A stretch of 63,481 bases of DNA, counting the filler, from Reticulomyxa filosa (lineage: Eukaryota > Protista > Foraminifera): NCBI GenBank assembly GCA_000512085.1. It is 14 parts of 14 records of this genome, joined end to end, with 100 filler letters (N's around TTAATTAATTAA, not from the genome) between each part and the next. Parts side by side here need not be neighbours in the genome. Positions count along the whole stretch, not along the records: positions 9,156 to 21,325 come from ASPP01005981.1; positions 21,426 to 38,621 come from ASPP01022609.1; positions 38,722 to 41,734 come from ASPP01020860.1; positions 41,835 to 43,340 come from ASPP01047124.1; positions 43,441 to 44,868 come from ASPP01011401.1; positions 44,969 to 51,164 come from ASPP01022981.1; 8 more parts are not named here. One strand, 5' to 3'. Position numbers and translations under genes: made by a program. Below are positions 9,312 to 51,164 of the stretch, piece by piece; positions within the stretch are counted from its first letter, which is position 1, and each line of letters starts with the position of its first letter. The notes beneath the pieces were generated by a model. That model was given only the letters and a program-made list of their open reading frames with translations, was not told the origin of the DNA and ran no database searches.

Positions 9312-10937
9312 AATTCTTCTTCTTCTTCTTCTTCTTCTTCCTTTTTTTTGACAAACTTTGCGCAACCTTCTGTTGAATCTGTACTGTGCACTGCGATTCC
9401 ACTTGACGAGTCCACTGCTTACCACATCGTGTCCAATATTGGCGATAGCGCTGCAAGATGTGCTGACAACAACGTCTGACGCAATGATTGAATCTGCGCT
9501 TTCGCGGATACAACAACTCTTTGCGATGGGACAATGTGATGCGCACTTTGGATTTGATGGCCCGTGTTTTCTTGTCTGTTCGATACCACCCTTTCCATCC
9601 AAGTGGATGCACTTTCACAAAGTACCACTTCCTTTCCCTCGTCTTTCTGTTTGTTCCCGGCACTTTCCCTGTCTGTTCCGGGTCTTTTGCAGGTGTTACT
9701 TTCTGGTCATGAATTCTGCTGTTCGGTCTGTATCGCAATTTGGAATGCCAGTGACTTGCCAATAGCGTTTTGTAAACGTTTCAATTCTTATTTTTTTGGT
9801 TAGGTATTTATATTATATATACATATGTGTGTGTGTGTGTGTGTATAAGTAAAACATATGCACAACATAAACATACAAAAGCAAAATGGTGGCATTGGAA
9901 ATGAGATATAAAAATAGCTCATCTCCGATAATGTGATGAAGGAACCCAAATTCTTTGGAGCCAACAACAAAGTTGGCGCAATCGTTGCGATGTTCATTCG
10001 CAATTTGATGATTCGCTTCCAATGGGAACACATTTCCTTGTGTTAATTTCTTTTTTTTTAAAACAATAAAAATAAATAAATCAAAGTGTGTAAATTTTTT
10101 AATAAAAATTTGGGGATTTTAATATAATTATATATACATACATATACATATATATGTATATGTATATGTAATTTTTTATTTTTTATTTTTTATTTTTTTT
10201 TTAATGATTCTGTCACAAACTTTATAACTGCTGTTCCAAAACCCAATGTCAATATATTTTGTTGTGATCCAATCCACGATGCGTTTCGTTGAAATCGCAT
10301 TCGCAATAACTCACTTACTAGCTATATGTATGTATGTGCATATGCATATTTTTGTCCCATTTGTCGTGTCCAATGGCCGTTGCTTCTTTCTCTTTGCAAA
10401 AAAAAAAATAATAAACAAAACGTAAGAATTGATATATCACTCAACGTCTTGTCTTGATGTCGATGCTGTGCCAATGCTGGGGAGTTCACTGTTTGGATTG
10501 TAGTTGTTGTTTGTTATATCGTCTGTTGGAAGATATACCTATTCATTGTTGTGGTGCATACACATACATATGCATGCACGTTGCATATGCACAATATACT
10601 CTTTTTTTTCCCCTTCCCCCCCCCCCAATTGTTACCAAAGTTGAGTGAACAAAATGTGCTATACTTTCATCTTGACTTGCTATCAATGTATCAATCACGC
10701 TTTGCTCGATATGGCATCGGTCTACTAAAAATCTTTCCAAAGTTAGAGCCGTTGGATAGATCTTGTGCACAAAGTCTGCTTTCGGGCCACTCTTGTGTTG
10801 GCTTAGGTCGTTGTCAGTTCTTTCGGTGGACTTCTGTTCCTGCTCGCTTCCATGTTCTTAGATTTAGACTTTCTTCTTTTCTTTCTATGGTCACCTGCAA
10901 ATTGATTATGCCATTGCAGGATGTCTAAACACTCCAT
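9156..10937 (-). CDS. TERT: Telomerase reverse transcriptase, N-terminal part (TEN domain and linker), multi-exon, truncated by contig end
   Basis: Spliced exons give IYPTALTLERFL...LIASQDESIAHFVHSTLV / ELLRMR...QNILTLGF / NDCANFVVGSKEFGFLHHIIGDELFLYLISNATILL / YWQVTGIP. This is colinear with the TEN motifs YxxVLxLxxF, NVLAFGF, VGDDxxxxLL and YQVCG. One apparent frameshift lies near 9740, and one junction (about 10220/10036) is out of phase by 1 nt. Confidence 0.85.
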
Positions 10938-11282
10938 TCTTACAACAAATGTTGTCGCAATTTTATTTTTTTTTGCCTTTATCGAAATTTGCAAAAAAAA
11001 CCAGTCTTTTAATAAACAAGTCTATACCGTGCTGCTTAGATTGCTTTGTATTCATGCAAACTTAGTCGTTATAGTGATAGAATATAGTGCTATATTAATA
11101 TAAAACCTTACTAATTACGAAACAGGAAGCGGAATTCAGCCCAATATGTGTATCATCGTTGTCTATGTGATTTAAAGAAAGCGCGTTTTCTTAAAACAAG
11201 CGTTTGAGTTTTTTTTTTTAGAAAAAGCGCTTTGTTTGTTCGAAGGTCTTCGAAACTTTATGTGTAGGAATTTCTACAATAA

Positions 11283-12988
11283 ATGGCACAAAATGAAGAT
11301 AAGTTCAAACTGAAAGCATGTCTGGCAGGTTTACTGAAAAGTGATACTCATCCACTGCTAGAATGGTTGGAGCACGTGACAGAAGAGTACTTGATAGAAT
11401 CTAAGAACATGATAGATGCCGAAGACATTAACAGTTTGTGTTCCACAATGTTGTTTACATACAAAGTTTGCACCAGTCATCAGGAGTGCGTGCAATTTTG
11501 TGAAGCCCTAGCGCAACAGCTGTTACGAGAATGAGCAACAAACCTTTTTTTTTTTTTTGTAAAAGAAGAGACAGATGAGTGACAAATGAATCGAAATGAC
11601 AATGATACTTGTATGATATAAATAGTGTGTTACACGGCATTGCAAAAGAGCATCCCGAGCCATTTCCAGTCAATAGTTCTTGCTTGGCCTTGTACCATGA
11701 AGATGGTATGGGGAAAAAAAAGAGAATAAAAATAAAAATGATAATGTTTGGTACATATATATAGAGATGAATACACGCACACATACACAAAGAGAGAGAG
11801 AAGGGAAAAAAAAATTATATAACAAAACGCCAAATGCGAGCAATCAAGATCGAAATTATAATTATAAACCTAAAAAAAAAAAAAAAAAATGTAAGGTTTA
11901 TGGTACCCAGCAAAGGTGTCACATGTAATAACTCCTCGAAAGAAATACACAGTGATATTCGACGGTTATAATAATGTGCAAGAAAATACGAATATAGACG
12001 AGATGATGGCGAGTAAGAACGACGAAGAACACGAAAGCAAACGCAGCGAAATCTCGCTGAAAGATCAATGGTCGAACAACAACAACGTCGAACTTCAGAA
12101 CAAAATGAGCGAGCTGCTAATAACCACTGGTCGACATGAATCCCAATTGCTAATGGAAGATCAAACGTCACGACAAAAAAAATATAAAAATGAACCTTTT
12201 GTTGAACATGCCATTGACGAAGCTACTCTACAGCACATTGAAGAACAAACTTAAAGGGTTTTTTTTTTTTTTAATAAATTCCTGAGCTCTTAAAACATAC
12301 GTATACGTTGTTGGGTGATGCAAATAGGGACCGATGACGCGGATTTTGAGAATTATTATAACACTCCTCAATTTGGTAATGAAGATGGCAATAACGAAAA
12401 CAACGACGACGGGGACGGGAACGGGAACGACGATGAAGAAACAAATTACGATGAGTTTGTTGGATTGCGATATAATTTCGGCTATTCCATCCCTATCAGT
12501 CCCAAATGCGATGAGTGTTGCATATGCCAACGCACACTTGCACTCACCTGGCATCATTTGATCCCTCGAACTACTCATTCCAAAATGATACGACTCCATG
12601 GATATGACCAAGATCATCTGAATAAGCGAGGTATCCATTTGTATCATGCCTCTTCGTCCTTCTCAACTTTTTTTGTGATTATTGTTAACAACAATAACAA
12701 TAATAATAATAATAAGGTATCTGGATTTGCCGAGCATGCCATTCTGCAGTGCATGGCATGTACGATAATTTTGAATTAGCGGAATCGTACAACAAATTAG
12801 ACGATTTACTGAAAACAGACAAAGTGCAAAAATGGATCAAATATATACAAAAAAAAAAACTTACTGCCCATAGCAACGACTCTAGAACTATTAAAAGCAA
12901 TCGCGTTGTCCAGTTAGAAAAGTTAGAAAAGAAAAAAGACAAAGCTGGAAATAGATCTCAGGAACTTACAAAGCCTAAATTTGTGTAA
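11283..12988 (+). CDS. Tudor domain + HNH (YisB-like) nuclease protein, spliced
   Basis: Tudor: CLALYHEDG|LWYPAKV...YTVIFDGYNN. HNH: CCICQR.LTWHHLIPR...ICRACHSAVH...ELAESYN. Confidence 0.8.
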
Positions 12989-13308
12989 GAGGTGTCAGTA
13001 TAGAAGTTTTTTTTTTATGAAAATCCAATCTTTCGATGAGTATACTATAAGTTTAACAATCCAAATAACAAATCATTTTCTTATTCAGCTAAACGCATTC
13101 TTTTTTGTTCCTTCAATATAAAGAATAATTGAAACTATGTGCAAAATTCCGTCATTTGATAATGAAATGAAAAGCTTTAGCAAATATGCGTGAATAAACA
13201 AGGTTATATCGATTGAATGACTAAATAATTTGACAAACTGTTTCGAGCAAAGAAGACGTTGAACAAAAAAAAGGGAATTGGTAAAAGAAAATTGAAATAT
13301 AACCGGAA

Positions 13309-14276
13309 ATGGCGAAAAATCTGTACCTTTTTGGTTTTAATTTGGTGTCATGTGCTGGTTGGGGTTATGTATTGTGGGAATGTGTAACCCACGTACCTAG
13401 TGTAGAAAAACAGGATTTCACTCCAGCAATCCGTGCCCTCGGCCCAATATTACCTGTTGTGCAATCGCTGGCAGTCATGGAAGTTGTGCATGCCATAACA
13501 GGTTTGGTGAAATCAGACGTATTTTCAACATTCATTCAAGTGTTAAGTCGATTGGGTATTGTGTGGCTGGTTTTGCACTGTTGAGTACAAAAAAACAAGA
13601 CACAAACACATTCATTGTAAAGAGAGAATTGTGTGCAATTGTTGTTCAGTGGGGTCGTTGAACAATGCACTCGGTTTTACGTCATCAGTGCCAAGACCAG
13701 GTAAATGCATTATCAAAAAAAAAAAAGGGAGGGGAGGAAAATTTATTTTTAAACAAAAAAAAAAAAAAAAAAAGAGACATATGGTTGGTCTTATTTTGGT
13801 TGTGCGCTTTCGTGGTCATTGGTTGAGGTTCCAAGATATTTGTTTTATGCATTGAATATTTACAAAATTTGTCCTTATCCTTTGTTATGGCTGAGATATT
13901 CGTTATTCATCATTTTGTACCCGACAGGAATCACTAGTGAAGTATTATCAGTACTTAAACTGAGATCTTTGCTTTCATCCAGTTTTGGGTCTTATTTGAT
14001 GCCAAACCGATTGAACTTCGAAATTACGTACCACCAAGCTTTAGTATTTGCGTTGTTGCTTTATGTTCCATGTATGAGCTTTCTTTTTATATATGTATAT
14101 ATATAGTATACATTGTGTATCTTTTCTTGCTTCTTTTGTCAAAAAAAATAAATACAATAAAATAAAATACAAATTTGCTGGTTTGACTGACAGTTTCGCC
14201 TTTTCTTTACAAACACATGCTTGCTCAACGATCAAAGCAACTCAATCCTGCTGATACAAAAAAGAAACGCGAGTAA
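13309..14276 (+). CDS. HACD: 3-hydroxyacyl-CoA dehydratase (PTPLA/PHS1 family), 4 exons
   Basis: QVLSR, WSLVEVPRY, WLRYSLFIILYPTG..E, LYKHMLAQRSKQL and a C-terminal KKRE ER-retrieval motif. Three in-phase GT-AG introns. Confidence 0.95.
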
Positions 14277-14867
14277 TTAAAAAGATTTATTTGTCTTGTT
14301 GAAGAGATAAGATGCTGAGGTTTGATTTATTCTTTAACGCTAACAACAGAAAAAAGTATTCTCTTTTTTTTCCGCGAGCCTTCTGTTGGGCTGCTATGTA
14401 GCCAATATTCTTTCGCATTAACTTGCCTTGTATCTTTTTTTGTTGTCGCAAGAAATTTCCAAATTTTAATGAAAAAAGAGAAACACATTTGCGCAATTTG
14501 TTAAAAATAAATGGTTTAGATCTATTATTAACTTTTTTGTTATGGCTACATTTTGTTTCATCGAAAGTATTAACTTTTACTCAATAGATGTACAAAACGA
14601 AGATATGTCGTACCCTAATCTCATTTTAAACATATGACTATGTAATCAAAAAAGAACGCTGTTTCCAAATATAATGCAATGAACAAAGTGAAAATAATCC
14701 GTCTATTTTAAGATGGAATCCCGTCACTTGAATGTAGTATTTTGATAATAAACAACTTGTAATATATTCTCAGCTATAGCAACTCGAGTGGATTGATTTT
14801 TATTGGTGGTCACTGCGGAAGAAAGCTTTAAAAGGTCGTTGGGTGTAAATTTTTAGGTTACAAGAGA

Positions 14868-17251
14868 ATGATATTAACATTTGTTGCCCTGTGTGCCCTT
14901 ATTTGTTCTACGGCCTATGGTGGTAAATCTCGCATTATAACCTGGACTCATAGATCCCTAGGTTCAGTCATCAACTGCACCGACGACGGCTTTGACGACG
15001 ACACGGCATGCGAAATTCGTTGTAACGCGGATCTTTCGTGTTACGACAGTACAGTGTATTGCCCAGCAAATGCAGACTGTCTGATATCGTGCAAAGGAGC
15101 AGAATCATGTTACCACAGTACAGTATATGGAAGAGGAATAAAAGACAGCAGCCAAAACGTAAACTTCAAGCTGAAGTGCGAGGGTGATAAGGCATGCAAC
15201 CGTATCCAATTATACGTATCGAACAAGCACAGTGCAAAAATAATAGCCAAGCATGACAACTCTTTGCAAGGTCATTGGTTTGAATTGACGAACATTGAAA
15301 ACGTTGAGATCGATTGTGGCCATGCGTCCGCATGTCAAAACGAAATGATATTCTTCAGCTATGAGAAATTTACCAACGTGTTGGATGTCTCGATGAACTG
15401 TACCGGCGACTCTTCGTGTTACCACATGTACCTTTCTTACGAAAATTCCACTGATGCATCATTGGCTATGCGTTGTGATGGAGACACTGCTTGCAAGGCA
15501 GTTTTACATTGGCGGGGTACGTTATCAAACTAATTTTTTTTTTTTTTTAAGTAACAAGGTTCTCCTTTCCCCCCCCTTTTTTTTTTTTGATAAAGTGTGT
15601 GTTTCTCTCTCCCCCTTTGGCTTCCTCAGCAAAAAAGATTTTTTTTCTTTTTTTAAAATATACACATCATATCTCTTCCGCCATGGACTCCAAAAAAAAA
15701 AAAACACACACACACAAAGTGAATAATGATCAGCAAACGGGCGCGACCATCGACTGTTCGTCCAACACTAGTGACACGACGACTTGCTCGATGCAAATGT
15801 ATGTGGAAGAGGGCTACCAAAGTGATCGAGTGCAATTGAAATGCAATGAATGGAATGACCAGTCTTGTGCACGCACTTTTTATCACTGCGGCACCTCTTA
15901 CCAACAGTCGTGCACAATGATGTATCAAAATGACACGTGGGAGTGCGTAGGAAATTGTCCTGTTGCGACCACGTCCACTACTACTACTACTACTACTGCC
16001 ATTGCAACAACAACAACATCCACAACAGTGGAGGAAAGCACTACCACCAGCACGACCGACTCGACAACAACTACGACGGAGGATTCGGTGGACACGTCCT
16101 CGACTACCGATTCAACGACGGCGACGACGACCGTCACTACCACTGGTGATTCCACTGACGCGACAGCCACCAGTACTACGACCTCGTCTGCAACTACCAC
16201 TGCTATCAGTGATTCAGAAACCACTACTTTCACAGATTCGACAACTAGCAGTGCCAGTGACTCCACGGATGCAGCGACGACTACCGTCACCACTACGATG
16301 ACAGTACTCCCACGACTGCTGATTCGACGTCCACAGATACCATCGATTCGACGGCCACAGATAGTACTGATTCAACGACTATAGATAGTACTGATTCAAC
16401 GGCTACAGATAGTACCGATTCGACGGTCACAGATAGTACTGATTCAACGGCTACAGACAGTACTGATTCAACAACCTCCACTTTCACTTCCACCGATTCG
16501 AGCGCTGCTGACGCGACGGAATCCACTACTACGATTGGTGATGTGACAAGCACTGCGACAGCTTCTACAACCACTGACATTAGTACAGACGTAAGTACGA
16601 CAACTACTTCGGGCTCAGAAGGTACGTATAATGCAACAGTCGTCGATGCAACTTCAACAGCATCGAGCGATTCCACAACCATCTCGACCACTCGCAGTGC
16701 TTCCGACACTTCTGAAACGACCACAAGTCAAACCTCCACGCAAACATTTACTACTAAAATTTCAACCGACTCCACCATTGTGACTCCGTCTTCACGCGAT
16801 GGAGATGGCGGTGGTGCGGGTCAGAACGTTAAGACTAGTACGACCACTACGACAACTACTGCTATTGGTATGCTCTACTGCCAAAAAAAAAAAACAAACC
16901 AATTGCAAAGAATATTGCTCTTTGTTTGCGTCTATTTTTTTTTCATACTTTTATGCCAAGACTTGTTGAAATGAAAGGATGGTGTGTGTTTATGGATACT
17001 CGATTATAGACGATGATGTTCGGTCAAATAATAAAGCTTCCAAAAGCACTTCTCATTCCAGTATATCTATACTGATGCTAGTGGCACTTGTTGTTGCGTC
17101 AATATGCTTGGTTTCATCGCTTGTTATATTATTTGTCATGTGTCGAAATAAACGACGCAATCAAGCTGCAAGCATCGCAGATGGTTCCGATGATCCTCTA
17201 TTAGATTATGATTCGGATAAATATGGCGCTTTCGAAGATGATGAAATATAA
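14868..17251 (+). CDS. Type I membrane glycoprotein: signal peptide, Cys-rich repeats, Ser/Thr mucin stalk, TM helix, acidic tail
   Basis: Hydrophobic N-terminus, repeated C-x5-C motifs (CxGDxAC-like), Thr/Ser/Asp stalk, TM ILMLVALVVASICLVSSLVILFVM, tail with DDPLL and YGAF. Two introns and a 1-nt frameshift at about 16297. Confidence 0.85.
16321..16472 (+). repeat. 24-bp coding tandem repeat (DSTATDST, about 6 copies)
   Basis: Units resemble GATTCAACGGCTACAGATAGTACT. Confidence 0.9.
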
Positions 17252-17663
17252 GGCAAATTCAAAAACGCCTTAAATCTGTACTTTACGTAGCATTGATGGT
17301 GTTGTTTGTTAAATTGAGAATTCTTTTTCTGCTTTTTTTTCTTAGTAAAACATCAGTTTCGAAAAAACTACATAAATAATTCTTAAATTTTACACATTCC
17401 TAAACCGTAAGATTCGATTGTCGCATGCCAAACGTAAATACATTTTTTTTACGTTTTGTTGTATTGAAAATCAAAAAGTCCCGAATGTCGTAATTAAGTA
17501 GCGTTCAAATTTTTTTAACTTTAAGATGTCAATTTTGTTACAATGCTGTATTGTGGCATTCGAAAATACCTCGAAAAATTTAATAAATGGCCATACAAAA
17601 AAAAAAGCATTATATCATGAAATCATAAAAGCAAGAACAAGCTGTGTGATTTTTATTTTGTTT

Positions 17664-19014
17664 TCAATTTTTTTGCTCATCCAAATTGGTAGTGCTTTTG
17701 TCACATTTTTGAAAAAAAGCAGCAATTTTAGCCCAATATTCGTCCCCTCCAATGGTCCAAGTTTCGTTATGAGTGCCTTCTGGAATGCTATACCAAGACT
17801 TGAACAAAGCAGCTTTCGCACCACGATTTAATTCGATCATGTGAGAACTAGGAACAAGTTCATCCTAACAAAAGGTGCAAGAAAGCCACAGACACATCCG
17901 GTGATTAGTCGCACGTGCGCACGCGTGTGTGCTCAAAGAGGTAGGAAAGGAAAAGAAAGAGAGAGAGAGAGAGAGGAGGGAAAGAAAAAAACAAACAAAC
18001 AAGATTCTACTAAACATTTTCACTGGATAAAAACAGCAAAGGGCAAGTGACATCAGCAATTGACTCGATCGATTTCCACTCGGATCGCAACATATATTTT
18101 TTGACAAAGCCGATATCTAAAATAGGAAAAACATGTTTGATCATGTCGCCAATGCTGGTAAAGGTATTTTCCAAAATGACACCGGCTAATTTGTCACAGT
18201 GTTGTTTGGCGATATAAATAGCCACAGCGCCGCCTAATGATCGTCCAAACAAGTAGATTCGATTTCTGTCCAAGTTTAATGCTTCGGAGTTGTACACATA
18301 ATCGAACGCCGTCTTTGAGAGACCAACAAAGTGTTAATATTAAGATGTTTCATTTCCTTATTTATTTATTTATTTTATTTTATTTATTTTTTAAAATAAA
18401 AATAGATTGAGTAATGTTGCTAACTCTTACTCAACCATGGCATCAATTTTCAAGCCGGGTTCACTCGGTTCTCCATCACTTTCGCCATATCTATCATCAT
18501 TACAAAATACACTCATTATCATTATACATCACTACCGACTTTCCTCCCTCTTCACTGTTTTCAAAGAGATACAAACAATCACCCTCGATATGACAATATA
18601 AATATGTTTACGCCCAATTTATGAAACATTTTGGAAATATTTGGAAGGCGAAATCCCATATCTACATTGTAGTTTATTGCTTGTGCAAAGGTTCAATAAC
18701 AACAACAACAATAAAAAAACTTGTTCGGAACTGCCAGCATTTTCTTGGAAAAATAACACGGTTGCACATTTGTCACTGTTTTTTTGAGGGATCCACCAAC
18801 AGTGTAACTTCAAGTTATCTGAGGTTGTCAGATGGATGTTTGTGTACTTCAGCTTCATTTGACCTGGGTTTTGAAAAGGCGATTGGTTGTCGCAAGTCCT
18901 TTTCGGGGGAACTGCTTCATTCAAGTAGAGCAGTTTATCTTGATTACTGTAAAGCAAATATATAAACCCGCCAACCACTACGCCCGAAATACAGCCAAAT
19001 CGTTTCCAACTCAT
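17664..19014 (-). CDS. ABHD13: Alpha/beta hydrolase, ABHD13/BEM46 family, 5 exons
   Basis: FQENAGNMGFR, SYRGYGESDGEPSEPG, GRSLGG nucleophile elbow, ENTFTSI, DELVP and GTHNETW. Confidence 0.93.
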
Positions 19015-19158
19015 TTTTCAATTTTTTTTGCTTTTTTTTTTGACTATTATCTCTGACTTATAAAAAAAAAAACTCAATGAAGCGTTTTATGCCCCCTTTT
19101 TTAAGGAGCTTTGCTTACACGGTTTCCCCTCCTTTTTTCGAAGTGATACAAAGAAGAA

Positions 19159-20420: not shown

Positions 20421-20457
<37 letters not shown>

Positions 20458-26651: not shown

Positions 26652-28496
26652 TCACAGAGGCATATTTCCGTGTTTCTTGTTTGGATTCTTCAGGTCTTTG
26701 TTTTGGAAGAGCTCTAAGTCTTGGCAAATTATTCTTCTTGTGTGAGATGGAGTGATCACGTCATCAATAAATCCTATAAACATTCCAAAAACATAAATTG
26801 TTACTATCAGTCAAAAATCTGATCAAAAATAAAATCGACCACTTAACCTCTTTTGGCTGCGACCAAAGGATTTGAAAATTTTTCTTCATAATCTTTTGTT
26901 TCGGCTTCCATATCCTTGCCTCGGCAAATAATTTCAACAGCCCCTTTTGCACCCATAACTGCAATTTCACCACTTGGCCAAGAATAAAATGCGTCTCCTC
27001 GCAAATGTGAAGGACTCATCACACAATAAGCACCACCATATGCTTTTCTTAACACTACGGTTATTTTAGGTACCGTTGCTTCTGCGTAAGCAAACATTAA
27101 TTTAGCTCCATGACGTATAATGCCCCCAGACTCTTGTGCCGTTCCTGGTAAAAATCCTGGTACGTCAACAAACGTTATAATTGGAATGTTGAAACAATCA
27201 CAGAAGCGAACAAATCGTGCGCCTTTTATACTGCTGTCAATGTCCAAGACACCTGCAGATTGTTTTGGCTGATTGGCGACGACACCAATTGTTTTTCCTT
27301 CCATACGTGCAAATCCAACCACTAAACTCCCTGCCCAATCTTCGTACAACTCAAAGAATTCACCATTATCGACAATCATACCTATTTTTTCCGTGATATA
27401 TACACAAAAGTAATGTCATCAAAGTTTAAACCTAAACTCCGTTACCTTTACTTTAATTTTCACAAATCAATACATCACTCAACTGATGACATCTCTGACA
27501 TCATAAGGAACGTTTGAATCATCAGGAATAATTCGATCCAATACCTTTTCGCTTCGGTCACGTGGATCATTGCATTGATATTGAGGTGGTTTATCATCAC
27601 AAGATAAAGGAAGATAGTCGTAAAATTCTCGGATTCTAAATACAATTTTTGTTTTATATTATTTGTGTTTGTTCTTTCAGTTCTGCTTGTAAGGAAGAAG
27701 CAACTCCTTGCCTTCATTATTTTTCCAAGCGCAAGATGATAAATTTAAAAAAAGCGAGTTGGAGATTATTTTAGTTGTGGAACTTTTTGATCTTTGCTTT
27801 AAAAAAAATAAAAAAAAATTTATGTGCACACCTTGCCAAAGCGTCCAAATCATTCTCAAATGCACCGCATGATACACCTGATTTCTTAGTGTGGATACTT
27901 GCGCCACCCAAGTCCTCTTTGGTCACATCCTCGAATAAGACTTGTTTCACGACATCAGGCCCCTATTTGGAAGACACAAACATTCCGCGCTCTGAAAACC
28001 ACATGTTCAAACTGACATTTTCTTTAACGTTTCATTCCCGTTTTAAACCAAAAAATGGAACGAAAAAAAAAATAAAAAAATAAAAAAAAGCCCCCCAAAG
28101 GTGCACATACATATACATATACATGTGTATGTGTATAGTTAGACAGAAATATAAATGTAAAACGTAATGTATGTGTGCAAAGAATGATTACCGTCAAGAA
28201 CATGTAAGAGCTTTGCTTGACCATAAAAGTCCAATCAGTGAGTGCAGGCGAATAGACAGCCCCTCCAGCAGCTGGGCCCATAATGCAAGTAATTTGAGGA
28301 ACGACACCACTCGCCATAACATTTCTAAGGAATATATCAGTATAGCCACGAAGGGATGCCACACCTTCCTGGATTCGTGCGCCACCGGAATCATTCAATC
28401 CGATCACTGGAACTTTGATTTTCATGGCCATATCCAAAAGCTATAAGTTCGCCACAAACAAACGAGCAAATATGTATTTTTATAAATAAACTCCCC

Positions 28497-28530
<34 letters not shown>

Positions 28531-29533
28531 TTCTTTTATTCGCAATTGTTCTTTTAACTTTGCAAATTTTTTCCGCATGTGCTTCAGACAAGGAACCTCC
28601 ATGAACTGTAAAATCTTGAGCAAACACAAGTACAGGTCTGCCATTAATCTTGCCTTTTCCGGTAATGACACCATCACCCCAGAACTAAGTTTTAGTTTGT
28701 CCACACATCTCACATTTGCGCAATTCCTCTTGTCTTAAAGAAATTTTGTTTGGGAGAAAACGATCTTGTTTTAAGTTGGGTGAGGGGAAAAAAAAAAAAA
28801 TGATCAACTGAAACAAAACAAAGGTATTATTCAAAAAAAAAAAAAAAGCCAAAAGGACAAAACAAAACAACCATGGAAAAAACAACACAAAATCACAAAC
28901 TTGTTTGTGTTGCATATCAAAATCATAGCATCGATGATTCACAAATGCTCCAATTTCCTCAAATGAGTTCTCGTCACACAATACTGCTATTCTCTCTCTA
29001 TTTCATTTTTTTTTTTTTTACCTAAGTCTTTTTTTCGCTTTCTTCCTCCTTTTTTTGTTTCCAACCCCCCTTTTTTAAAACCCTCTTTCACCTCCCCCCT
29101 CTTCTTCCAATCCCTTCTTCTGCGCTTCTTGATTGGTACAGAAAAAAAATCGCAGCTAGGTATATACGTTACCGGGCAGTGAGCTTGTTTTTGTCGTGTT
29201 GTTTTTGAATTGAGTCCGCACCCCCACCCAATTTAGCTTCTGCTCGGTATTTTTCCAATCTGGGAAGAAAACTCTAAATCATTTGTATTGTCATTTTTTT
29301 TTATATCAATTAAGTTTACTTTGTTTGCATTGTTTGATTTTTTTTAGTGATTATGGAAAAAACAAGATAACTTTATTTGAGAATGCTTGACAAGCCAACA
29401 AACGCCATGGATTGATGTTGCTCTGTTGAAGATTAGAACGAAAAAAAAATAAATTATTTCAAAATTAGCAATAAAAAAATTTTGTCGTAACTGTCAGTTG
29501 AAAAGGTCGGACCAATGCTCGAGAAAACATCAT
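26652..29533 (-). CDS. PCCB: Propionyl-CoA carboxylase beta chain, mitochondrial, 10 exons
   Basis: [70 protein letters not shown]. Nine in-phase GT-AG introns. Confidence 0.97.
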
Positions 29534-31343: not shown

Positions 31344-31375
<32 letters not shown>

Positions 31376-32278: not shown

Positions 32279-33020
32279 TTAATTGGGTAACATCATCTCC
32301 CATATTCGGATAATACCATTGGCTTCCTTTGCCAAGATTGTCTGTCCATCTTTTGAAATGCTTGCATGCATAAAATGAGAACGACAATGTTCAAATCTTT
32401 CATCAGGTGAAATCGCAAAACTGTAAGTACCAGTTGGATCTTTTTGCAGTCTTACTATCTGTTTTTTTGATGAACAATCCCACAAAGTAACAGTATAGCT
32501 AAATGTATATGACAAAATGAACGATTTTTGTGGTGAAAATGTGCAATCAGCCAATCCGGCATGTCCCCATTTGCTCATCTCTTGTCCCGATGCTATATCC
32601 CATATCCGAAATGTTAAATCACTGGTACTTGCTGACATAAACACAGTTCCATCTGCTGAGAATTTAAGTGGCTGATTGGTTTGATATGTCCATGAAAAGC
32701 TTGAATTTCTTTTTTGGAAAATATTTCCCACACGTAAATTGTGTGATTGTCGCTGCTCTTAAGCATGTGCCAGCCGTCCAGTGCAATTTGTATACATGTT
32801 CCAATACGATCCACTCGAAAACCGTCAGCTGCTTGAACTCATTAGCCTATCGAATTGGAAAAAGTAAATTTGTCAAGGATTACCACACTCTCACAAAAAA
32901 ACTGGCAAAGAATACACTCAACATATCGTAGAATCATATTCATCAAATCGTCAATCCATCCCCAATTAATAAAAGATTATTGCATCCAATTTTCCACGAT
33001 CGTGATTTTTACTTTTTTTG
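32279..33020 (-). pseudogene. Degenerate WD40-repeat gene
   Basis: WD-repeat fragments (FSADG...RIWD, GH..I, ISPD, IRIW) spread over several frames with stops. Confidence 0.75.
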
Positions 33021-33938
33021 TCTGTGCACAGATTTTGTTGCAAAAAAAAAAAAAAAAAAAAAATGGGTTCACTTTTTGATATATAAGAAATTGCTACTAC
33101 CATTATGATATCATCATTACCAACTTTTTCTTGTTTCTTCACAAATAGTCCTTTAATTGCCTTCATTCCTCCATAAGTCCAATCTTCCTTTCGTCTGTCT
33201 CAAACGTATACACAAAATTCAAGACTTGCACAAATCATCACAATTTAATACTTTTTCAAAATTGAGCTGAAAAATACAAATAACAGTTTTTTTTTACTTT
33301 GGCCATGGATATTACAACACTTGCGCGAAACATGTTTGTCTCATGTTCGATTTTTAGACTAATCATATTGTTTTGTTTCACGTTTAAAATGACATCGCAA
33401 ATGCGTCGTGATAATCTTTGTTTGTTTGGCCTTTTTTGACGCGGAAATTTTGTAGTTTTATCATACAGAAAAAAGTTTTAGTTTGAGGTTATAGTATAAT
33501 CTTGACGCAACTCGTTGTTTATTTCTTTTTGCTCGCTGCTTCCCTTTTTGCAAACTTACGCAAAATTAGAATAACAACATACCCAATTGTATTACAAGAA
33601 ACATTTGACAAACGAGAAGATATAGCTAAATCATACTTGCGTGTCGCTCAATTTTCGACTTTTTTCGATCTTCTTTTAATCAATTTTGACAGAGTTCTGT
33701 CCCCGGTTCTCAAGTTAAAAAAAAAAACTATACGCAGCAGTTTTACTGGCTCTACTCTTCTAAGAGCCCTTTGCCCTTTTGATTTTTTAGGTGAAAAGAG
33801 TGTTTATTTTGACTCTTTTTTATCTTAATGTAAAATTTGAATACACTAGATGTACGACATTATAAATGTTTTTTTCATTTTGACTTTATTCAAATAATTT
33901 GTATTGATATCAACTAACAATAACAAAATCAAAACATA

Positions 33939-35233: not shown

Positions 35234-35671
35234 TGCAAAGGGGGACTGGTATGTTGCAAACCTCGTTTAGAAGTTTTTATAATGTTTAATACATTAGAGC
35301 ATTGTATTTGATATAAACCTTGAAAAAAAAATTATTTTGAAAAAACTTATTCATAAAAGAAGCCTAAATTCCTATGATTTTAACAGAAAAACAGATGATG
35401 TTCAAAATCCTTTGGAAAGTGTTCCTTTTTCATACATTCCACACCCGTTGTGATGCTTTTTTGTCAGATGCTACAAATAAGCGATAATTAAAAGAATGTT
35501 AAAAATTAGAGAATATTGCCGTTGACTTTATTTGTTATTAGATTTGTTCGAAGTTGGCAGACAATTCATTAAAAAAATAAAGCTAAAAATTGCACATATA
35601 AAACATTTGGTAATCAACAATAAAAAGTATTACACAGTTGAGTATTTACAATTTCGTAAGTATTTTGTCTT

Positions 35672-41560: not shown

Positions 41561-43440
41561 GGTTTTTTCATTTTTTTAAATTCTTATTGTACATCGCACT
41601 ATCAGAAAATTTCAGGAACAATACTAGTTTTCCTAAAGGGCTTTTTAAATTAAAATAACATTTTTTTTTTTTTTGCTGACTGTGCAAAAAAAAAAAAAAA
41701 GAGGTTAAAGAACACGTTCTAACAAATTTTTTTTNNNNNNNNNNNNNNNNNNNNNNNNNNNNNNNNNNNNNNNNNNNNTTAATTAATTAANNNNNNNNNN
41801 NNNNNNNNNNNNNNNNNNNNNNNNNNNNNNNNNNTCTAAAATCAAAACGACGGTATGTTGTTCGAGAAGCAGTAAAGTATCCATCATCTGCCTCATACTG
41901 TTGTTTCCTTCGCTTGTCAGATTTTGGGTCATGAAATGGTTGCGATTCCTTGTCATTTACAATGACCAAAACTCTGGAGTATTACCTTGTTTTTTTTAAG
42001 TTAAGCAAAAACGAACCATTTTATTTTTTGCACAAATTTGCATCTGTCTTTTTTTATTATCATTAAAATAAGTATCTAAAAATTATATAATATGAGATGT
42101 TTTGAGTGGTATACAGCTACCTCTTCCGAATTGTTGCATTTTTGAATAGATGTAATGCACTGTCGTGTACGTAATAAAATTCAAAAAACGCAAGTTATTA
42201 GTTTATTTTGTCAATCTATAAAAAGTTACAATAACAAATATGACTAACTTTGTCTCACTAAAAAATTTTTTAAGTGGTCACTTTTTTAAGATTCTCTTTA
42301 AAAAAACTAGTTCATAACATTGACACATGGTTAATCAAAATACAAATTCTTTTCAAAAAATGAAGAGCTTGCCATTTCTACTTCAACATGTTGTCGTAAT
42401 GAGTATAAAACTCAAAAAAAAATCAGCTTCAGAAACTTTTTGCGAAAAATTTAAAGATGATAAACATATCAGGTGTGCTGGAGAATTGGACATTGAATTA
42501 TCATTTTAAAAAAATTCACAAAGACTACAATTCACACAAAAGAAATTTTTGAGCAAAAATTGAGGCAAATGCAAATAAACACCTTGAGATCGATAATGCC
42601 ACCAACTTTGAACTTTACTTTGCTCTTGCTGGTACCGCAACTACTTCCAATTGCTCGACATACAAGTTTTGGGTTCTTTGGAAATCTATGTTATATATTT
42701 GTGTATTGATCATACATATTTCAAATATTTTCCATTCACAAAAAAAAACCATATAACTTGGAATATAGGTTGCGTACATCATCATGAAAATAATCAGCTC
42801 ACCACAACTTTTAAATTGTTCAATTTTCTTTCAATTCATCATGTTCCACACTACATTTGATATGGACCTTTTTTTTTAATAAAAAAAAATTATACGCCAT
42901 TCGAAGCGCAATATCATAATCCATATTCGATACACACCGTCATTAAAATCGATTTTTGTTCAATGATGAACAAAATGAATTTCATTGGAGAAATAACAGG
43001 CGCATGTGTTATAGTGTGGCTCCTTTCCATCAGCAGCAATTCGGCCATGATGTTGATACACTTCTTTTACACTCACGTACTGTAATAGCCATCAATACTG
43101 CTGCCACTATTGCTGTTGTTGCTGGGGACTCACTGCAACACTAGTGGCAATGTAAGTAGCAACAACATGTCCATCTGCGTTCCAAAACTTCATGTAGTGT
43201 ACCTCCATCTCCGTTTGTACACTTTGAAATATCTATTCAAAAATTTGAAGCAACACACATAAATATATATAATAAATATACGTATAATAGTTATTGGATG
43301 TGTACATAAAAAAAAATATATATGTACATATAAAAACTTTNNNNNNNNNNNNNNNNNNNNNNNNNNNNNNNNNNNNNNNNNNNNTTAATTAATTAANNNN
43401 NNNNNNNNNNNNNNNNNNNNNNNNNNNNNNNNNNNNNNNN

Positions 43441-43483
<43 letters not shown>

Positions 43484-44499
43484 CCAAATAATTCAATAAC
43501 ACACTCTTTTTTTTTCCTCCCTTCCCCTCCTCCCTTTCTTATTCGCTTACAATTCACCTCTTTTGGACGGGTTTTTTGCATATTCGTCCAGTGCGCTACA
43601 ACACACGGAAAAGACAGTCATATAGTTCGTTTCGTGCCATTTCTTGTGATCACTTGCCTCAAATTCCTCTTTTGTATGTGTGTATATGTATTAGTATGAA
43701 TGCTTTATGTTTTCGTTTTGGATTGCTTCTTTTCTTGCAGGTCGTGAATTGAAACAAACAAGTCTATTTGATTTTCAAACTTTGAATAGCAACTAAGGCC
43801 TTAAAACGCGTTTTGGCATCATATTTGTCATTCGAAAATTGATCAAATTTCTTATCTCTATTATTGAAAGGCCACATTTCCTTAAAGGGTTTATTTCTGA
43901 ATTTTTCATTATACACCCTTTGGGAAAGCATTGTCTTTGCACTTGGGGAAGGGAGAGAAAAGACGAAAAAACTTAATGAAAATAATTGTCCTAATCTTTC
44001 TTAAAACGTAACAAGGCTGACAAAGATGATGTTAAAAGATTCAAACCAGGTTTGGAAAATTGGTAAAAAGATGTATCCAAAACAACAATTGACGACCCCA
44101 AGTCGGTAAAAAACACAATCAACGGAAAGGGAACAAAGTGGCCTACGACGAATTGTAAAAGAGACAGTGAGGCTGGCCCATTTAAAATTAATATTTTAAG
44201 AAAAGAAAAAGGTTGAGAGTAGAGAAAGGAGAGAGGAAAAAAAAAAAAAAAAAGACCAAAAAAAAATAAATGAGAAAAACTTGTGCCCTTCCAATTGTAG
44301 GAGAAAAAAAATGAGAAACAAAACTTTAACATTTTTCTTAGATGGAGTGAAAAGACTATTAAAAAAAAGCTGGGAACTACACAACGTGTATTTACAGGTA
44401 GAAGAAGAAAGGGCAAGAGATGAAGAAGAAGAAGAGTATGGAAGGGGAGGGGAGCGGATGAAAGAAACAAAGCAAAAAAAAAATGTTGCGACTAAAAGC

Positions 44500-44837
44500 T
44501 TATGTTTTGGTGTCTTTGACATCATCCGAGACCGTGTCTTTGGCATCGAACCTCACCGATTTTTTCAAGTGATTGGGTGACTTGGACTTGGATTTGGAAT
44601 GGCTGTCTCTTTTTTCAGTCGGATATTGGTTGCGATGAGGACTACCGCCATTGTTGGTCTGACTTGCATTTTTGTCATTGGGATCATGAGTAGGATCCTT
44701 GTCAGTGGATTTGTCATCCGACACAAGTTCAACACGATGGGCATCATGGTCACCGCCATCATCGTCATCATCGCCACCGTGACTCGAATGTTGGCGATGG
44801 TGATCATGATGACGACGATGATGTTGCTGTTGTTGTC

Positions 44838-44868
<31 letters not shown>
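44500..44868 (-). CDS. Low-complexity C-terminal fragment of an unknown protein
   Basis: Open frame NNNGQQQQHHRRHH...DDDD...KKSVRFD...KT*. Confidence 0.45.
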
Positions 44869-45042
44869 NNNNNNNNNNNNNNNNNNNNNNNNNNNNNNNN
44901 NNNNNNNNNNNNTTAATTAATTAANNNNNNNNNNNNNNNNNNNNNNNNNNNNNNNNNNNNNNNNNNNNAAAAAAAAAAAAAAAAGTTCACCGATTCTTTT
45001 CCCCCTTTTTTTTTTTTTTTTTTTTGAAATGTTTGGAAATAG

Positions 45043-45555
45043 CTAAACACAGTGAGTGTAATTGAGTTGGCTCGCTCGTTTGTTCGCGTGGTTCGTTCTC
45101 GCAATAAAACGTCGAATCGACATTTGATTGCCGTAACCAGTAGCATGGCGGGCAAAATTGGAAGCCCTGGACAGCCGGCTTATACGGCCAGCAAACACGC
45201 GATTAATGGGTTTTTTGACAGTCTGCGCATTGAATTAGCTCGCGAAAATTTCCGCGTCTCTCTCATTTGTCCTGGTCCTACTCATGTTACCGATAACTCC
45301 ACCAAAGGGTTTGGAAACTCGGTCGAACAAGCCAGTGGCAGATTGCTGGATGACAAACGCAGCACATCAAAAATGACCACTCAACGCTGTGCCGAATTAT
45401 ATGCCACCACTTTGTATTTCAATTTATACGAGTCTTGGTTATGTCAATCACCTGTACTCACTTTTGGCTACTTGAGGCAGTATCTGCCCATGGCTTTTGT
45501 TCCTTTGTCGACCATACTTGGACAGAAACAACTCAAGGAATATGCCAGACAGTAA
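45043..45555 (+). CDS. Short-chain dehydrogenase (DHRS7-like), last exon
   Basis: TSSMAG, catalytic YxxSK (YTASKHA), GFFDSLRIEL, ICPGP, KMTTQRCA. Confidence 0.9.
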   Translation, partial: LNTVSVIELARSFVRVVRSRNKTSNRHLIAVTSSMAGKIGSPGQPAYTASKHAINGFFDSLRIELARENFRVSLICPGPTHVTDNSTKGFGNSVEQASGRLLDDKRSTSKMTTQRCAELYATTLYFNLYESWLCQSPVLTFGYLRQYLPMAFVPLSTILGQKQLKEYARQ

Positions 45556-45870
45556 ATACTAAAAGTACCATTAAATTGGCTTTCAATTTTGCATTTTTTT
45601 ATTTCTTATGCTCTCTTGGTTGATGGATCGTGCTATAGCACAGCACAAGCAAAAAAAAAATTACTCATTTTTCTTATGATAATTTTTTTAAAAAAATAAT
45701 GTCTCTTCTTTGCAATAAACATTTTCCTAAACAAATATCGTCAACTGTACTCAAACATTTTTTCACTTTTATGACAAGCAAGTTGTAGCGATGTACAAAG
45801 AGAAAAAAACAATGGGGTCCTTCCCTTGGACTGAAATTCTTTCAAAAGTTGTATAAAATTAAGCAGAATA

Positions 45871-46697
45871 ATGACAAATCCAAAAAGCTCCTTTAGCCGC
45901 GAAAGATACCTCAGAAAAACGTGCCTCCCAATTATCTCGAACGATAGACTTTACAATGGGATGGCCGTCAAGGGCAATGCATTTGAAGTCAAGCATATTG
46001 GCAAAGGCAATGGAAGCACATTTACACGAAGAAAATGAGGACGAGTATCATAATTCATTGGACTATGGACTGAACGAAGGTCCATGGAGCATGCGTTGTA
46101 CATTGGCAGAATGGTTAAATGGCATATGCAATACCGCGAATTACGGGGAGGAAAAGAAGAGTACTAACAATGAGAAGAAAGAGAAAGAAAAAGATGAAAA
46201 CAAAGATAAAGCAAAACCAAGAGTTTTAACGAGTATTCCAAGACTAACAGATGATGTGAGTACCGATCCATCGGCAGTAGGTTATCGAGGCGTGCACTTG
46301 TTTTTGACGGCGGGTGTGAGCGACGGACTACGTCTATGTTGTTCGACATTGCTGCACCCGAAAAAAGAGAAGGACATTGTGCTATGCGAAGACCCGACGT
46401 ATTTCATCAAGCCAAATATCATTCAGTCGTATCACGGACAAGTGTTGCCCATTGAGACGTCTCCGAAACATGGGTTGGATATTACGTATTTGCGCATGAT
46501 TTTGCAAAACTGTGCAAAGCATGACATGCTAAAGAGGATCGCATTTTTTTACGTCATTCCCTTTTTCCATAATCCCTTGGGAGTAAGTCTGTCGTTGGAA
46601 AAGTGTCAGCAGTTGATTCAATTGGCCCATGAATACGATATTTGGATTGTATCGGATGAAATTTATATGGCTTTGTATTTCCCTCGTGATGATGATG

Positions 46698-46728
<31 letters not shown>

Positions 46729-47530
46729 TAATAGCTATGAAAAAAATAATGACCATAATAATGACGACAGCAACACTGTGCATGGACATACTTGCAGTTT
46801 GTCCATTATTGAAAAACTCATGTATCCAGACTTGGACAGCGACAAATATCGCGTGCTGTCGTTAAGTGGTGTGAGCAAAATCATTGGTCCTGGATTTCGT
46901 TGCGGGTGGATTCATACGTTCAATGAACATTACTTGGATAATGTGCTGAGCAGCGATGGGGTCTTGATTAGCTCCGGCTGTCTCAGCAGCTTTGTGTTTT
47001 CTTTATTGCAACATGTATGGCTGTCCGATGATTGGTCCCTTCATTTGCGATACGTGCAAAGGCAACTCGCTCGCAATTGCAAACTGCTTTGTGCAGAATT
47101 GTTCAAATATAACACTCCGCAATTAACTCTGTTGAAGTGCTATTGCATTCCCTCAGGAGGGTATTTCTTGTGGGTTGAGTTACCACAGGGCATTACTTGT
47201 GACCAAGTCGAAAGTTTCATTCAGCAAAAACACACTCTTGTTAAAGTCTCTTTTTCTCATGGATGTAGTTCTTCCAGCTGTTTTTCTCCACTTGCCTCCA
47301 AAGTTTTGTTTCGAAATGATCTCATTTGGGATTGGTCCAAATACCAAACCATACATCACTTGCGCATGAAAAGATGTGTACGTTTGTGCTTTGGGTATTT
47401 AAATGAAAGCGACCTACAAGAAGGGGCCAAGATTTTTACTGACAGCGTCTTTGCTTTATATCAAGAAAATCTCAAACTCTTGGATTTTGAGCGGGACAAA
47501 AAAAATGGAGGGAACTCTTCTTTTCATTAA
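45871..47530 (+). CDS. PLP-dependent class I/II aminotransferase (MocR/Aro8-like)
   Basis: IDFTMGWP, TAGVS, EDPTYF, HNPLG, DEIY, SKIIGPGFRCGW, GGYFLW, VRLCF. The ATG at 45871 needs a 1-nt correction in the A5 run. Confidence 0.9.
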
Positions 47531-49082
47531 TTCCTTTTTTTTTGGCTCTTTCGCGTTTTGATTAATTTGGAAGGACACAAAAAATGTTTCTCAATTTGCA
47601 TACTGTTATTATGTTGTCCACGTTCCTTTTTGTTTTGTCCTCTATTATTTTTTATCTTCTTAGCAATTGTTGATGAACTACTTTCGAAGTGGAAATATAC
47701 AATGCATTATCCTTTATTTGTTCTATAGTTATCGTTTTTTAAAAAATTTGCCTTTTGATTGTAGTGGTGCTACTTCTCTCTTTGCAGAAGAATTTAGGAT
47801 ATTGGATTTCTGTGACAGTGAAATTCAAGGAATGTTGTAGTGCCAGTGACATGATGTTGAATGTCAACAGGCTTTTTCATTTTTGCAAAGTGATCCTCGT
47901 TTTTTTTTTTATAGAAGAATGTTATAGGACCCCGCCCCAAAGGGGCATAGCCCAACCATAAAAAAATTTGCTAATTCTCAAACGATCTGAACGCAGCGAG
48001 GAATTTGTTCCACCGATCACAAACAGCTCGCTTAAGGGAAAGTATAGTGAAATTTTTATCAACGTGCTACTATCTCAAAATCTCCAAAAAATTTTTAATA
48101 ACCAAAAAATTCCAAATTAAATTAAGTAAAAAAAAGACTTAATAACATCTTGGTGAATCTATAATCATTGATAAACTGGTTGTTCGAAATTTCTTCTTTT
48201 ATCGAATTTTTGATTTCTTAAAAGATCATGTCTTCTTTCCGAATGGTAAGGTGTTTGCTTGTTGTTAGGAAAGTACAAAAACATAACATAGTACTATGAT
48301 GTTGTCAATACTGTTCACCTTTTCTCAGACACCTAGCTTCTGAAGCTTTGCATGATAAGATGTGAAAATGATTTTTTTTTTCGTTTTTTATACTTGTTTA
48401 TTTGTCTTGTTATTTTGGATAAACGCGTAAAACAATTCTAGTAGATATTATTAAATAGCATACTTCTATTTTGATGATAACTATACTATCATAGCTTTAG
48501 CATCAACTTACTGCATTATCAGGACTACACTTCTTTCTCTTCATTTAAATTTAAGCACAAAATCTTTTTTGTTCTTTTTGTTTAAATAGCCAATTTGCCA
48601 AAATTGTACCAATTTTTTGAAGATTCATCTTTCAATTGTATATTCTACTGTCAGTAAAAACAATAATGTAATCTAATTGTAATGTTGCTGAATTTTAGTT
48701 TTATACAAAACTATTTATGAAAACGCAACACAATAAAAAACAATCTTTGTGACTGAGTTAGAAAAATATTGGCAATTGCAATAAGGAAGTGATGTTGTAT
48801 TTGGCATTTCATTTGAAATTACGTAACTTAATGTTTTGATTTGATTTTTTTAATTGAGTTTTGTTCTGTAAACCGAAAATTTGATGTTCTTTTCTGCTTG
48901 TCTGTTTCTATTTTCACAATTTAATTACATCAAAAGTGATGATAATTTAGTTGCACAAGATACTCCTTTGAAATTTGAAATCTCTTTGTCAAAGCTTATG
49001 CCTTTCTGCAGTGTAAAAGCAAAACTTTGAGCAGGGGCTTTCCCGATAGTGATTTGTATTTTTCCAGGTTTCGCTTCAAATA

Positions 49083-51164
49083 ATGGAAGGCACCCGCGAA
49101 GGTGTGGACATTGATGAATTTTTGAAAGATAATGATCTCTCCGACTTAAAAGATTCGTTTGTAGAAAAGCAGGTGTCGCTTGAAGAGCTAGCAGAGTTTA
49201 CAAACTCGGAACTGATTGCGTTTGCAAAAGATCTGCGTTGAGTACTTGTGCATTCTAAGTTGTCTCGGCACTGTGGACACGATAGTGTACTCTTTTGAAG
49301 ACGTCAAACAACAAAATGAAAAAGAGACAAAGGAAAATAAAATAAAACAAAACAAACAAACAAACAAATAAACAGAACTTGATGAAACTCGAACAAATAC
49401 CTTCATTGAAGCGATTCGAAAATTGAAGCCTGCAAAGGATGCACCAACGTCAACACTAATGGGGAAGAGTGGAGAACAGCCCGCTCCTTCAGTGTCTAAG
49501 AAGACGAGCGGAGGTGCAGATTTAGTGCATTTGATCATATCTCCTCAAGAGCATGAGGCCATAACAAAACTGCACGACAGATATGACCAAGCGGGCACCT
49601 TATTGAAAAAGTTGGACCAATCGTTTGACGTGCTAAAAAGAAACGGGGAAGTGTGCCAGCAAGATATAACTGCGCGGATGGAATCGGTATTCAAATACAT
49701 CTACGATTGGCAAGACGAGTTGCTTGGCGCTGTGGACTCGATGAAAGCCCAAAAAAAGCAAAAATTGGAACAGCAATTGGATCAGCTGAAAACTTATCGA
49801 GCAGAAATTAATCTAGTTTTGTTTGTGTGTGTGTATGTGTTTAACTTTACATTTTTTTTTTTTTTTGCGTATATATGTATATAATACATACATATATACA
49901 TATATGTATGATTTTATATAATTTATATAATGTGCGTCTGCAGAGAGAAGTGCGCACTTGCGAGATTGTTTTCCCTCCCCTTTTTTTTTTTTAATCCACA
50001 TAAATCCTCCCCCTTGCTTTTTTTTTTTAATTTTCAAAGAGAAAAGATCAAAACAAAATGAATAAATAAATAAATAAATAAATAAAAAAAGGGCAAAAGC
50101 AAGTACCAAGAGTTGATAGACAACCCAAGCTTGGACGTGCAATTTCGCAAGAAGCAGGTGATCACCATGGTGGATGAGTTGTTGAACCGTCAGGAGATAC
50201 CTTTGCTAATGGTCACCCAACCGAAGCTCGAGCTTAACTGGAACGACCAATATTTGAATACTCTCTTGTCGCAGGTCATTATCAACGATTGCGACCAACC
50301 TGTACCGCCACACCTGTTGATCGCTGGAGTGCGGCACAACTCTGTCACAGTTTTGTATTATCGTTATATATTTGTATGTGTAATATTGAAACAATAATTA
50401 AACATTTGAGGAAAGAAGAAAGGAGGGGGGGGGGGGGGGGAACGGTTGATGTATGTATATGCGACAATTAATCGCATGTTTTTTTTTGGGGGGGGGGCGG
50501 TGTTATAAAAGTTGTACGTGTCAATTCTGGCCAGTGACTTGGGAAAAGAAGTACTGGAATTTGTGGTCGAATATGCGGCGTTACCTGAAAGTGAAGATTC
50601 GCAATTGAAATCGGGAAACTCGAATGACATAACGACCCTACGAAACCCTTCGATTGGGTCTGACCAGTCGCGCCAGTCGCAAATAGCAGTGGGAGCACTA
50701 CCAAGACATATGTCGAGTCGTTTGTCAGCACTCGCTGCTCACACACAGACTAATGTGTTGGAAAAGTCAAAGAAATCCAAGAAAAAAGGCGACGACGACT
50801 CGTCTTCGGAAGACTCAAAGTCAGACAAATCGTCAAAGGACGACGATGACAAGAGCAGCAAGAGCGCCAGCGAAAGCGAAAGCGAGGAAAGTGGAAGCGA
50901 TACAGGCAGCAACAAGTCCAGCGGAAGCGAAAAGAGTGGCAGTGACAAGTCGAGTGGTGGTGATTCCGATGAAGACGATTCGGAAAGCGAAAGCAATAAA
51001 AAAACCAAAAAAAGCGGGAAAAAAAAAAAGACAAGGAAAAAAAAGAACTTAAAAACGCACCCAAAGCTCAACGAAGCTCGATCGCTTCTGCCAAAGTTTC
51101 TCGTGCAAAAAGCAGAAGTCGCAGCGCAAGCTTGAGTGACAATCAAAAACGCGCGGTTCGTATT
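49083..51164 (+). CDS. SAM-like + coiled-coil + FN3-like protein, truncated
   Basis: IDEFLKDNDLSDLKDSFVEKQVSLEEL...FIEAIRKL (SAM), a TRIM-like coiled coil, PVPPHL...HNSVTV...FVVEY (FN3), then a Ser/Asp/Lys low-complexity region. Confidence 0.65.

Follow-up and report, generated by a model that had tools for sequence, protein, structure and literature searches.

How the binding of U1 small nuclear RNA (snRNA) relates to the position at which an intron is cut is a long-standing question, and binding in a shifted register is known mainly from exceptions in human genes. The question arises for the introns of the foraminifer Reticulomyxa filosa in a stretch of 63,481 nucleotides (assembly GCA_000512085.1), referred to here as the window, which consists of 14 short contigs joined by N linkers. 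The original prediction was that in this DNA the 5' splice site (donor) sequence GTT[GAT]AGT replaces GTRAGT (R, purine). As worded this is overstated, since the full motif is found in 8 of 41 placed donors and 17 of the 41 begin with GTR. The explanation that is probably correct is that there are two common classes of GT-AG donor, G//GTR (the double slash marks the exon-intron boundary) and a shifted class, A//GTT or //GTT[GAT]AGT, which is likely to be read by U1 one base further into the intron.

Donors were placed in two ways. Fifteen of the 41 were fixed by homologues, transcript contigs or exact continuity of a domain profile and 26 by reading frame only; a donor-blind gene model was noisy and served only as a guide. 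The spliced PCCB gene has a stop-free frame that aligns to protein P0003 with 405 identities and zero internal gaps, and for HACD 225 open-frame splice models were compared against protein P0241. Contigs of a single run (X1), guessed to be of RNA origin and compared over 3.1 kb of the window only, skip 26774-26847, 27382-27483 and 27636-27831, with a loose end that extends into the exon past 28191. GT..AG is the sole canonical reading of these joints, although between 2 and 15 of 238 letters in the contigs disagree with the window and the two named PCCB junctions are ambiguous by 2-3 letters. Every one of the 39 introns for which an acceptor was placed has AG at its end, GT-AG being also a rule of placement. 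The seven heptamers on which the original prediction was built all lie at the coordinates and strands given for them. Five are donors fixed by homology (PCCB 27483 and 26847, HACD 13580, ABHD13 18435 and 18015), the two in PCCB also being skipped in X1, while the donor at 49237 was placed by frame and a SAM domain only and that at 10445 by frame only. The reported majority of GTT donors in PCCB, HACD and ABHD13 persisted on recounting, with 8 of 14 donors rather than 10 of 16.

At position +3 the 41 donors carry T in 24 cases, A in 14, G in 3 and C in none, so that 59% start with GTT. The full motif GTT[GAT]AGT (20% of donors, confidence interval 9-35%) is absent from 83 GTT decoys inside the same introns, and G occupies +4 in six of its eight occurrences. 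Enrichment of AGT at +5 to +7 over background, which had been set beforehand as one test of the prediction, is present: AGT stands there in 8 of the first 40 donors (p ~2e-6 after correction for 384 trinucleotide-by-position tests) and in 8 of 24 GTT donors compared with none of the 83 intronic GTT decoys. G at +6 is likewise found in 15 of 24 GTT donors and 7 of 83 decoys. Among the GTT donors fixed by homology, five of eight have AGT at +5 to +7, at four unrelated positions in three genes, against a background of ~1-2% (p 2e-7). The heptamer GTTGAGT occurs 14 times in the window where 7.8 are expected, a count reached by 4 of 100 shuffles, and six of the 14 are donors. When the seven donors named beforehand are set aside, the remaining GTT donors retain G at +6 (8/17, p 0.0004 against decoys) and a purine at +8 (12/17, p 0.01 against decoys).

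None of the 41 placed donors reads GTRAGT (95% upper bound 8.6%), and none reads GTRAG. The earlier claim that the window has no GTRAGT donor therefore stands for the placed donors, but two of the 37 GTRAGT hexamers, at 54981 (+) and 59936 (-), could not formally be excluded. The one at 54981 comes immediately after an ATG, reads GTGAGT and has a T-rich tract behind it; it may be a canonical donor, but the nearest acceptor has no open frame after it. The paralogue read-throughs described below show that there is also a normal-register GTT-N-G subclass; G is present at +5 in 5 of 24 GTT donors, and GTTTGT accounts for 2 of 41 donors. Minor (U12-type) introns have the donor motif RTATCCTT and a strong branch point. 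No GTT donor has the motif, the nearest being GTATCCAT at 12631, and CTRAY near the 3' end is limited to 3 of 39 introns.

The exon side of the GTT donors is shifted as well, an observation that is new here. A precedes the cut in 14 of 24 GTT donors but in only 1 of 17 GTR donors (p 0.0008), whereas G at -1 is found in 3 of 24 and 11 of 17, respectively. GTT within coding sequence is preceded by A in only 10 of 55 cases. Without the seven donors named beforehand, A at -1 is found in 13 of 17 GTT donors (p 5e-5) and M (A or C) at -2 together with A at -1 in 12 of 17 (p 4e-6), both compared with decoys. With M-2 and A-1 as well as A+5, G+6, T+7 and a purine at +8, the GTT class is the whole human-type MAG//GTRAGT consensus moved along by one base. 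Within it, donors that match strongly on the exon side seldom do so on the intron side, A-1 occurring in 1 of 8 AGT donors and in 13 of the 16 remaining GTT donors (p 0.002). Normal donors show the same trade-off between exon and intron strength, but here the seesaw lies within the shifted class (MA//GUU versus NN//GUU[GAU]AGU), and NN//GURAG is found in 0 of 41.

Pairing with U1 was scored by counting hydrogen bonds to the standard arm, as given in Table 2 of Tan et al. (2016). In the canonical register GTT donors score 10.3 and decoys 10.6, whereas in the shifted register the values are 14.1 and 10.5 and in bulge registers 14.8 and 10.8. GTR donors score 15.8 in the canonical register compared with 13.1 for decoys and have no excess when shifted. 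Taken singly, 19 of 24 GTT donors have their better score in a shifted or bulge register, and 14 of 17 GTR donors in the canonical one. Since the GTR donors keep both G-1 and the canonical fit to U1, the shifted donors are regarded as a second, co-dominant class and not as a full replacement. The part of the original suggestion that holds is that a one-base-shifted class is real and common, and its exon-side shift strengthens the U1-register reading; the 17 GTR donors, 11 of which have G-1, show that it does not replace the normal register. The position of the cut does not move. At four of the five homology-fixed GTT junctions at which cutting one base later would alter a codon, the residues of the homologues favor GT..AG in our own comparison. 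A cut one base later, giving AG//TT introns, was ruled out because it requires non-AG ends and changes conserved residues.

In the proposed mechanism, U1 binds GTT donors one base deeper in the intron, with no change to the GT at which the cut is made. A-1 would pair with U10 of the arm, G+1 with C9, T+3 with A7 and G+6 with C4, and U5 and U6 would then set the cut position. U1 is the likely reader, being the snRNA that reaches across the exon-intron boundary and would make these four pairs. Shifted-register donors are of low frequency in humans. Human U2-type 5' splice sites have been reported to use U1 in a register shifted by +1 (Roca and Krainer 2009, as described in PMC4856993), and a bulge +2/+3 register has also been reported (Roca et al. 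2012, as cited). At human shifted sites U1 pairs further in and U5 and U6 fix the cut (PMC4856993; PMC9311317). As here, those introns are GT-AG introns cut at GT with a consensus slid by one base, and the model shifted oligonucleotide in Table 2 of Tan et al. (PMC4856993) carries CA ahead of GU and AAGUA starting at +4, like the GTT class. They differ in being a non-canonical exception, whereas in the window 20% of donors have the full intronic motif, 59% begin GTT and none of 41 has GTRAG; furthermore, G and not A dominates +4 in the window. Because an ordinary U1 arm can read such sites in humans (PMC4856993), altered U1 or U6 snRNAs, or a lineage-specific spliceosome, are possible but are not implied by the donors.

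Several observations weigh against this reading. No U1, U5 or U6 sequence was seen in an Rfam scan of the window at gathering or E-value thresholds (no snRNA passed either, and the matches obtained were TA-repeat look-alikes of microRNAs). Parker and coworkers attribute donor classes to U5 and U6 more than to U1 (PMC11732430). Frame-only donors were placed with guidance from the donor-blind model and by eye, several alternatives were settled by eye, and ~15-20 further candidate introns with ambiguous junctions or in broken genes were left out before counting. When the 15 homology-fixed donors are taken by themselves, the A-1 difference (4/8 GTT versus 0/7 GTR) is not significant (p 0.08). T at +3 is only modestly over the T-rich background, with 24 of 41 donors compared with 83 of 212 intronic GT (p 0.025). 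Without the seven donors named beforehand, the full AGT is found in only 1 of 17 GTT donors and A+5 is not significant (p 0.07). Full-motif donors lack A-1, and therefore the bulge register fits them as well as a pure shift does. Finally, public HSP70-like paralogues that read through one homologous intron imply T at +3 in 7 of 8 and G at +5 in 7 of 8 but never AGT at +5 to +7, and three paralogue read-throughs of a second intron lack G+6. These donors were deduced from amino acids at two intron positions with a GT start assumed, a procedure biased against stop codons, and only some of the proteins bear the name R. filosa.

Within the preferred explanation, an ordinary and a changed U1 arm are about equally probable. 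The changed-arm version, a serious possibility though a minority one overall, holds that a U1 gene, either the sole one or a dedicated variant, has a 5' arm pairing fully with A//GTT[GA]AGT, for example through a change at position 8 or one inserted base, so that the shifted class becomes the preferred site. It would account for the absence of GTRAG, with which the ordinary arm pairs perfectly, and for the majority of GTT and the G at +4 in six of eight full motifs. There is precedent in Entamoeba, whose GUUUGU donors accompany a co-evolved U1 arm ACAAAC, and in Mastigamoeba, with GUGCGC and ACGUAC (bioRxiv 10.1101/2022.06.08.495308), but yeasts, Micromonas and Thecamonas have altered donors without a change in U1. 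An in-silico scan of all single changes to the arm singled out none, and position 8 to A fell outside the top eight. No such gene was found in the window, and a scan of metagenome contigs for one guessed arm variant, a weak scan since the loops of a foraminiferal U1 may be different and the contigs may not contain the DNA, gave a single chance match. That match lies inside a bacterial contig (L001) and was rejected as a changed-arm U1. The same contig has a sub-threshold match to the Xanthomonas sRNA sX9 at 1106-1172. When foraminiferal genomic DNA was sought by HSP70-like alignment, the viral contigs gave none and the genome contigs one weak bacterial match (L002). An 11-mer in a 3' flank of the window, at 35635-35645 (-), would pair perfectly with the shifted donors; it was rejected as a U1 arm because no U1 stems and loops follow, and it is taken as chance. 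More tentatively, a changed U1 arm, possibly with a U6 box reading one base further, may characterize foraminifera and perhaps wider Rhizaria, making the shifted site preferred genome-wide and purging GTRAG while older G//GTR donors are still spliced.

An unlikely alternative places the cause at the U6/U5 step, with the ACAGA box reading one base further into the intron or with an unmethylated U6 (METTL16/SNRNP27K loss) disfavoring A+4 and so removing GTRAG. In humans NN//GURAG, the class defined by U6 pairing, makes up 53.6% of donors (PMC11732430); it is missing here and NN//GUU[GAU]AG stands in its place. In addition, 11 of 12 donors with G+5 have T or C at +4, and in Saccharomycotina +4U donors are tied to the loss of METTL16/SNRNP27K (Parker et al. 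2023, PMC10581693). The likeness to Saccharomycotina is limited to these normal-register G+5 donors; those yeasts keep a purine at +3 and have no shifted class. Moreover, intronic decoys also have T before G in 32 of 45 cases, and the +4 pyrimidine pattern therefore does not stand out clearly from background. Other registers are hardly open to U6 (PMC4856993), and a U6/U5 cause leaves the GTT-specific A-1 unexplained.

It is rather improbable that the donors are simply degenerate sites in T-rich introns, with the shifted motif seen post hoc in a small, partly hand-placed sample and with GTT donors of the Entamoeba-like GTTTGT kind. The modest excess of T at +3 and the paralogue read-throughs, which show GTT with G+5 and not AGT, agree with such an account. 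So does the report by Olthof et al. that, of 50,607 annotated R. filosa introns, only 6,244 (12%) have the scores of typical major introns while 23% rate as non-canonical (PMC11347168), in keeping with sites that are weak in general or poorly annotated. The AGT of five of the eight homology-fixed GTT donors and the excess of G+6 and A-1 in the held-out donors argue against it. Entamoeba resembles the window in having a lineage-wide atypical donor with U at +3 and shows that a U1 arm can change. It differs in its normal register (G+5), its few introns and its near-invariant motif (GUUUGU in 88-90% of introns in a system of that type, compared with 2 of 41 here), whereas the window has G at +6, loose motifs, two classes and intron-rich genes.

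It is very improbable that the true donors are GTGAGT or GTAAGT, the extra T having been introduced by homopolymer miscalls or in assembly, in spite of a fragmented assembly with some frameshifted genes and spliced contigs that cannot check intronic bases, since 8 of 14 donors in PCCB, ABHD13 and HACD would need an error while 3,129 bases of their spliced frames, with 191 sense and 154 antisense contexts of G plus a T run (345), have no frameshift or stop, the exon base at -1 would be unaffected, and GTT is likewise implied by the proteins of paralogues in a different assembly.

A literature search found no published account of a shifted donor class in foraminifera; the R. filosa genome paper, older actin-intron papers, and logo figures and supplements were outside its reach and could already show the pattern. 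The accessible text of Olthof et al. (PMC11347168) does not describe the donor motif behind the R. filosa intron classes, and that of PMC13746701, PMC10245619, PMC6783311 and PMC12730881 gives GT-AG termini or intron sizes only. If the two-class reading is correct, thousands of introns using the shift would be a natural experiment on what sets the donor code: the register, the sequence of the arm or the U6 step. It would also account for the frequency with which gene models of foraminifera run into introns and for the atypical scores of most annotated R. filosa introns, and would help in predicting genes in Retaria. A changed arm, if real, would mean a spliceosome that, in an intron-rich genome, works in two registers about equally often. 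Public R. filosa models (proteins P0121, P0244, P0247, P0249 and P0243) often read on through introns starting with GTT or terminate within them, which suggests that their annotation missed this class of donor.

Table 1. Introns of the window with their donors, positions in window coordinates
Feature	Coordinates	Strand	Evidence
PCCB intron, donor a//GTTGAGT at 27483	27382..27483	-	Gap-free homologue alignment; skipped in X1 contigs
PCCB intron, donor g//GTTAAGT at 26847	26774..26847	-	Gap-free homologue alignment; skipped in an X1 contig
HACD intron 1, donor t//GTTGAGT	13580..13649	+	Best of 225 splice models against P0241; junction gap-free
ABHD13 intron 3, donor g//GTTGAGT at 18435	18313..18435	-	Homologue alignment
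ABHD13 intron 4, donor t//GTTTAGT at 18015	17865..18015	-	Homologue alignment
SAM-domain gene intron 1, donor c//GTTGAGT	49237..49375	+	Frame; SAM match stops near exon end; donor selected by donor-blind model
TERT-like gene intron, donor c//GTTGAGT at 10445	10322..10445	-	Frame only; TERT label unconfirmed
Frameshifted WD40-like gene intron, donor t//GTTGAGT at 32922	32847..32922	-	Frame only; absent from the original prediction
PCCB intron, exon-side shifted donor caa//GTTTGTG	28685..28900	-	Homologue alignment
PCCB intron, donor aaa//GTTAAAA	28441..28558	-	Homologue alignment
ABHD13 intron 1, donor gca//GTTCCGA	18662..18731	-	Homologue alignment; conserved Asn at junction
PCCB intron, normal-register donor aag//GTGTGCA	27636..27831	-	Homologue alignment; skipped in an X1 contig
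PCCB intron, normal-register donor acg//GTAATCA	27963..28191	-	Homologue alignment; X1 loose end enters upstream exon
PCCB intron, donor ccg//GTAACGT	28998..29172	-	Homologue alignment
HACD intron 2, donor cag//GTAAATG	13701..13774	+	Splice models against P0241
HACD intron 3, donor cat//GTATGAG	14072..14193	+	Splice models against P0241
ABHD13 intron 2, donor agg//GTGATTG	18491..18582	-	Homologue alignment
PWI-domain gene intron, donor tat//GTATGTA	53568..53655	-	PWI profile positions 2-53 and 56-70 join exactly across intron

The 3' splice signal may also be atypical. The acceptors of the 39 introns are TAG in 20, AAG in 13 and CAG in 6, often with an A-rich stretch rather than a pyrimidine tract upstream, and CTRAY is found within the final 45 bases of 3 of 39 introns.

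The window is mostly AT-rich, intron-bearing DNA of a Reticulomyxa-like foraminifer. The nearest named relatives of its proteins are R. filosa proteins at 43-70% identity, and other, closer homologues reach 94%; six translations from the window had no identical entry in the protein collection. Two GC-rich contigs, at 51265-53130 and 60846-62040, have a bacterial look and are probably assembly contamination; by eye they were labeled as having an integrase-like end, AlpA-like and primase-like frames, and a PAS/GGDEF-like signaling gene. The N-terminal exons at 9156-10960 (-) resemble telomerase reverse transcriptase in their motifs, a label that Pfam and PDB left unconfirmed; a CDC123 label likewise had no support from Pfam or PDB. 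Genes broken by frameshifts and stops at 32279-33166 (-) (WD40-like), 41835-43340 (-) (TRAF-like) and 58000-59350 (-) (SERCA-like P-type ATPase) are pseudogenes or assembly errors. A gene at 11283-12900 (+) has a Tudor-like exon pair, a weak Pfam match, together with an HNH-like Cys/His motif that is interrupted by an intron; the donor of this intron, GTATCCAT, is like that of a minor intron.

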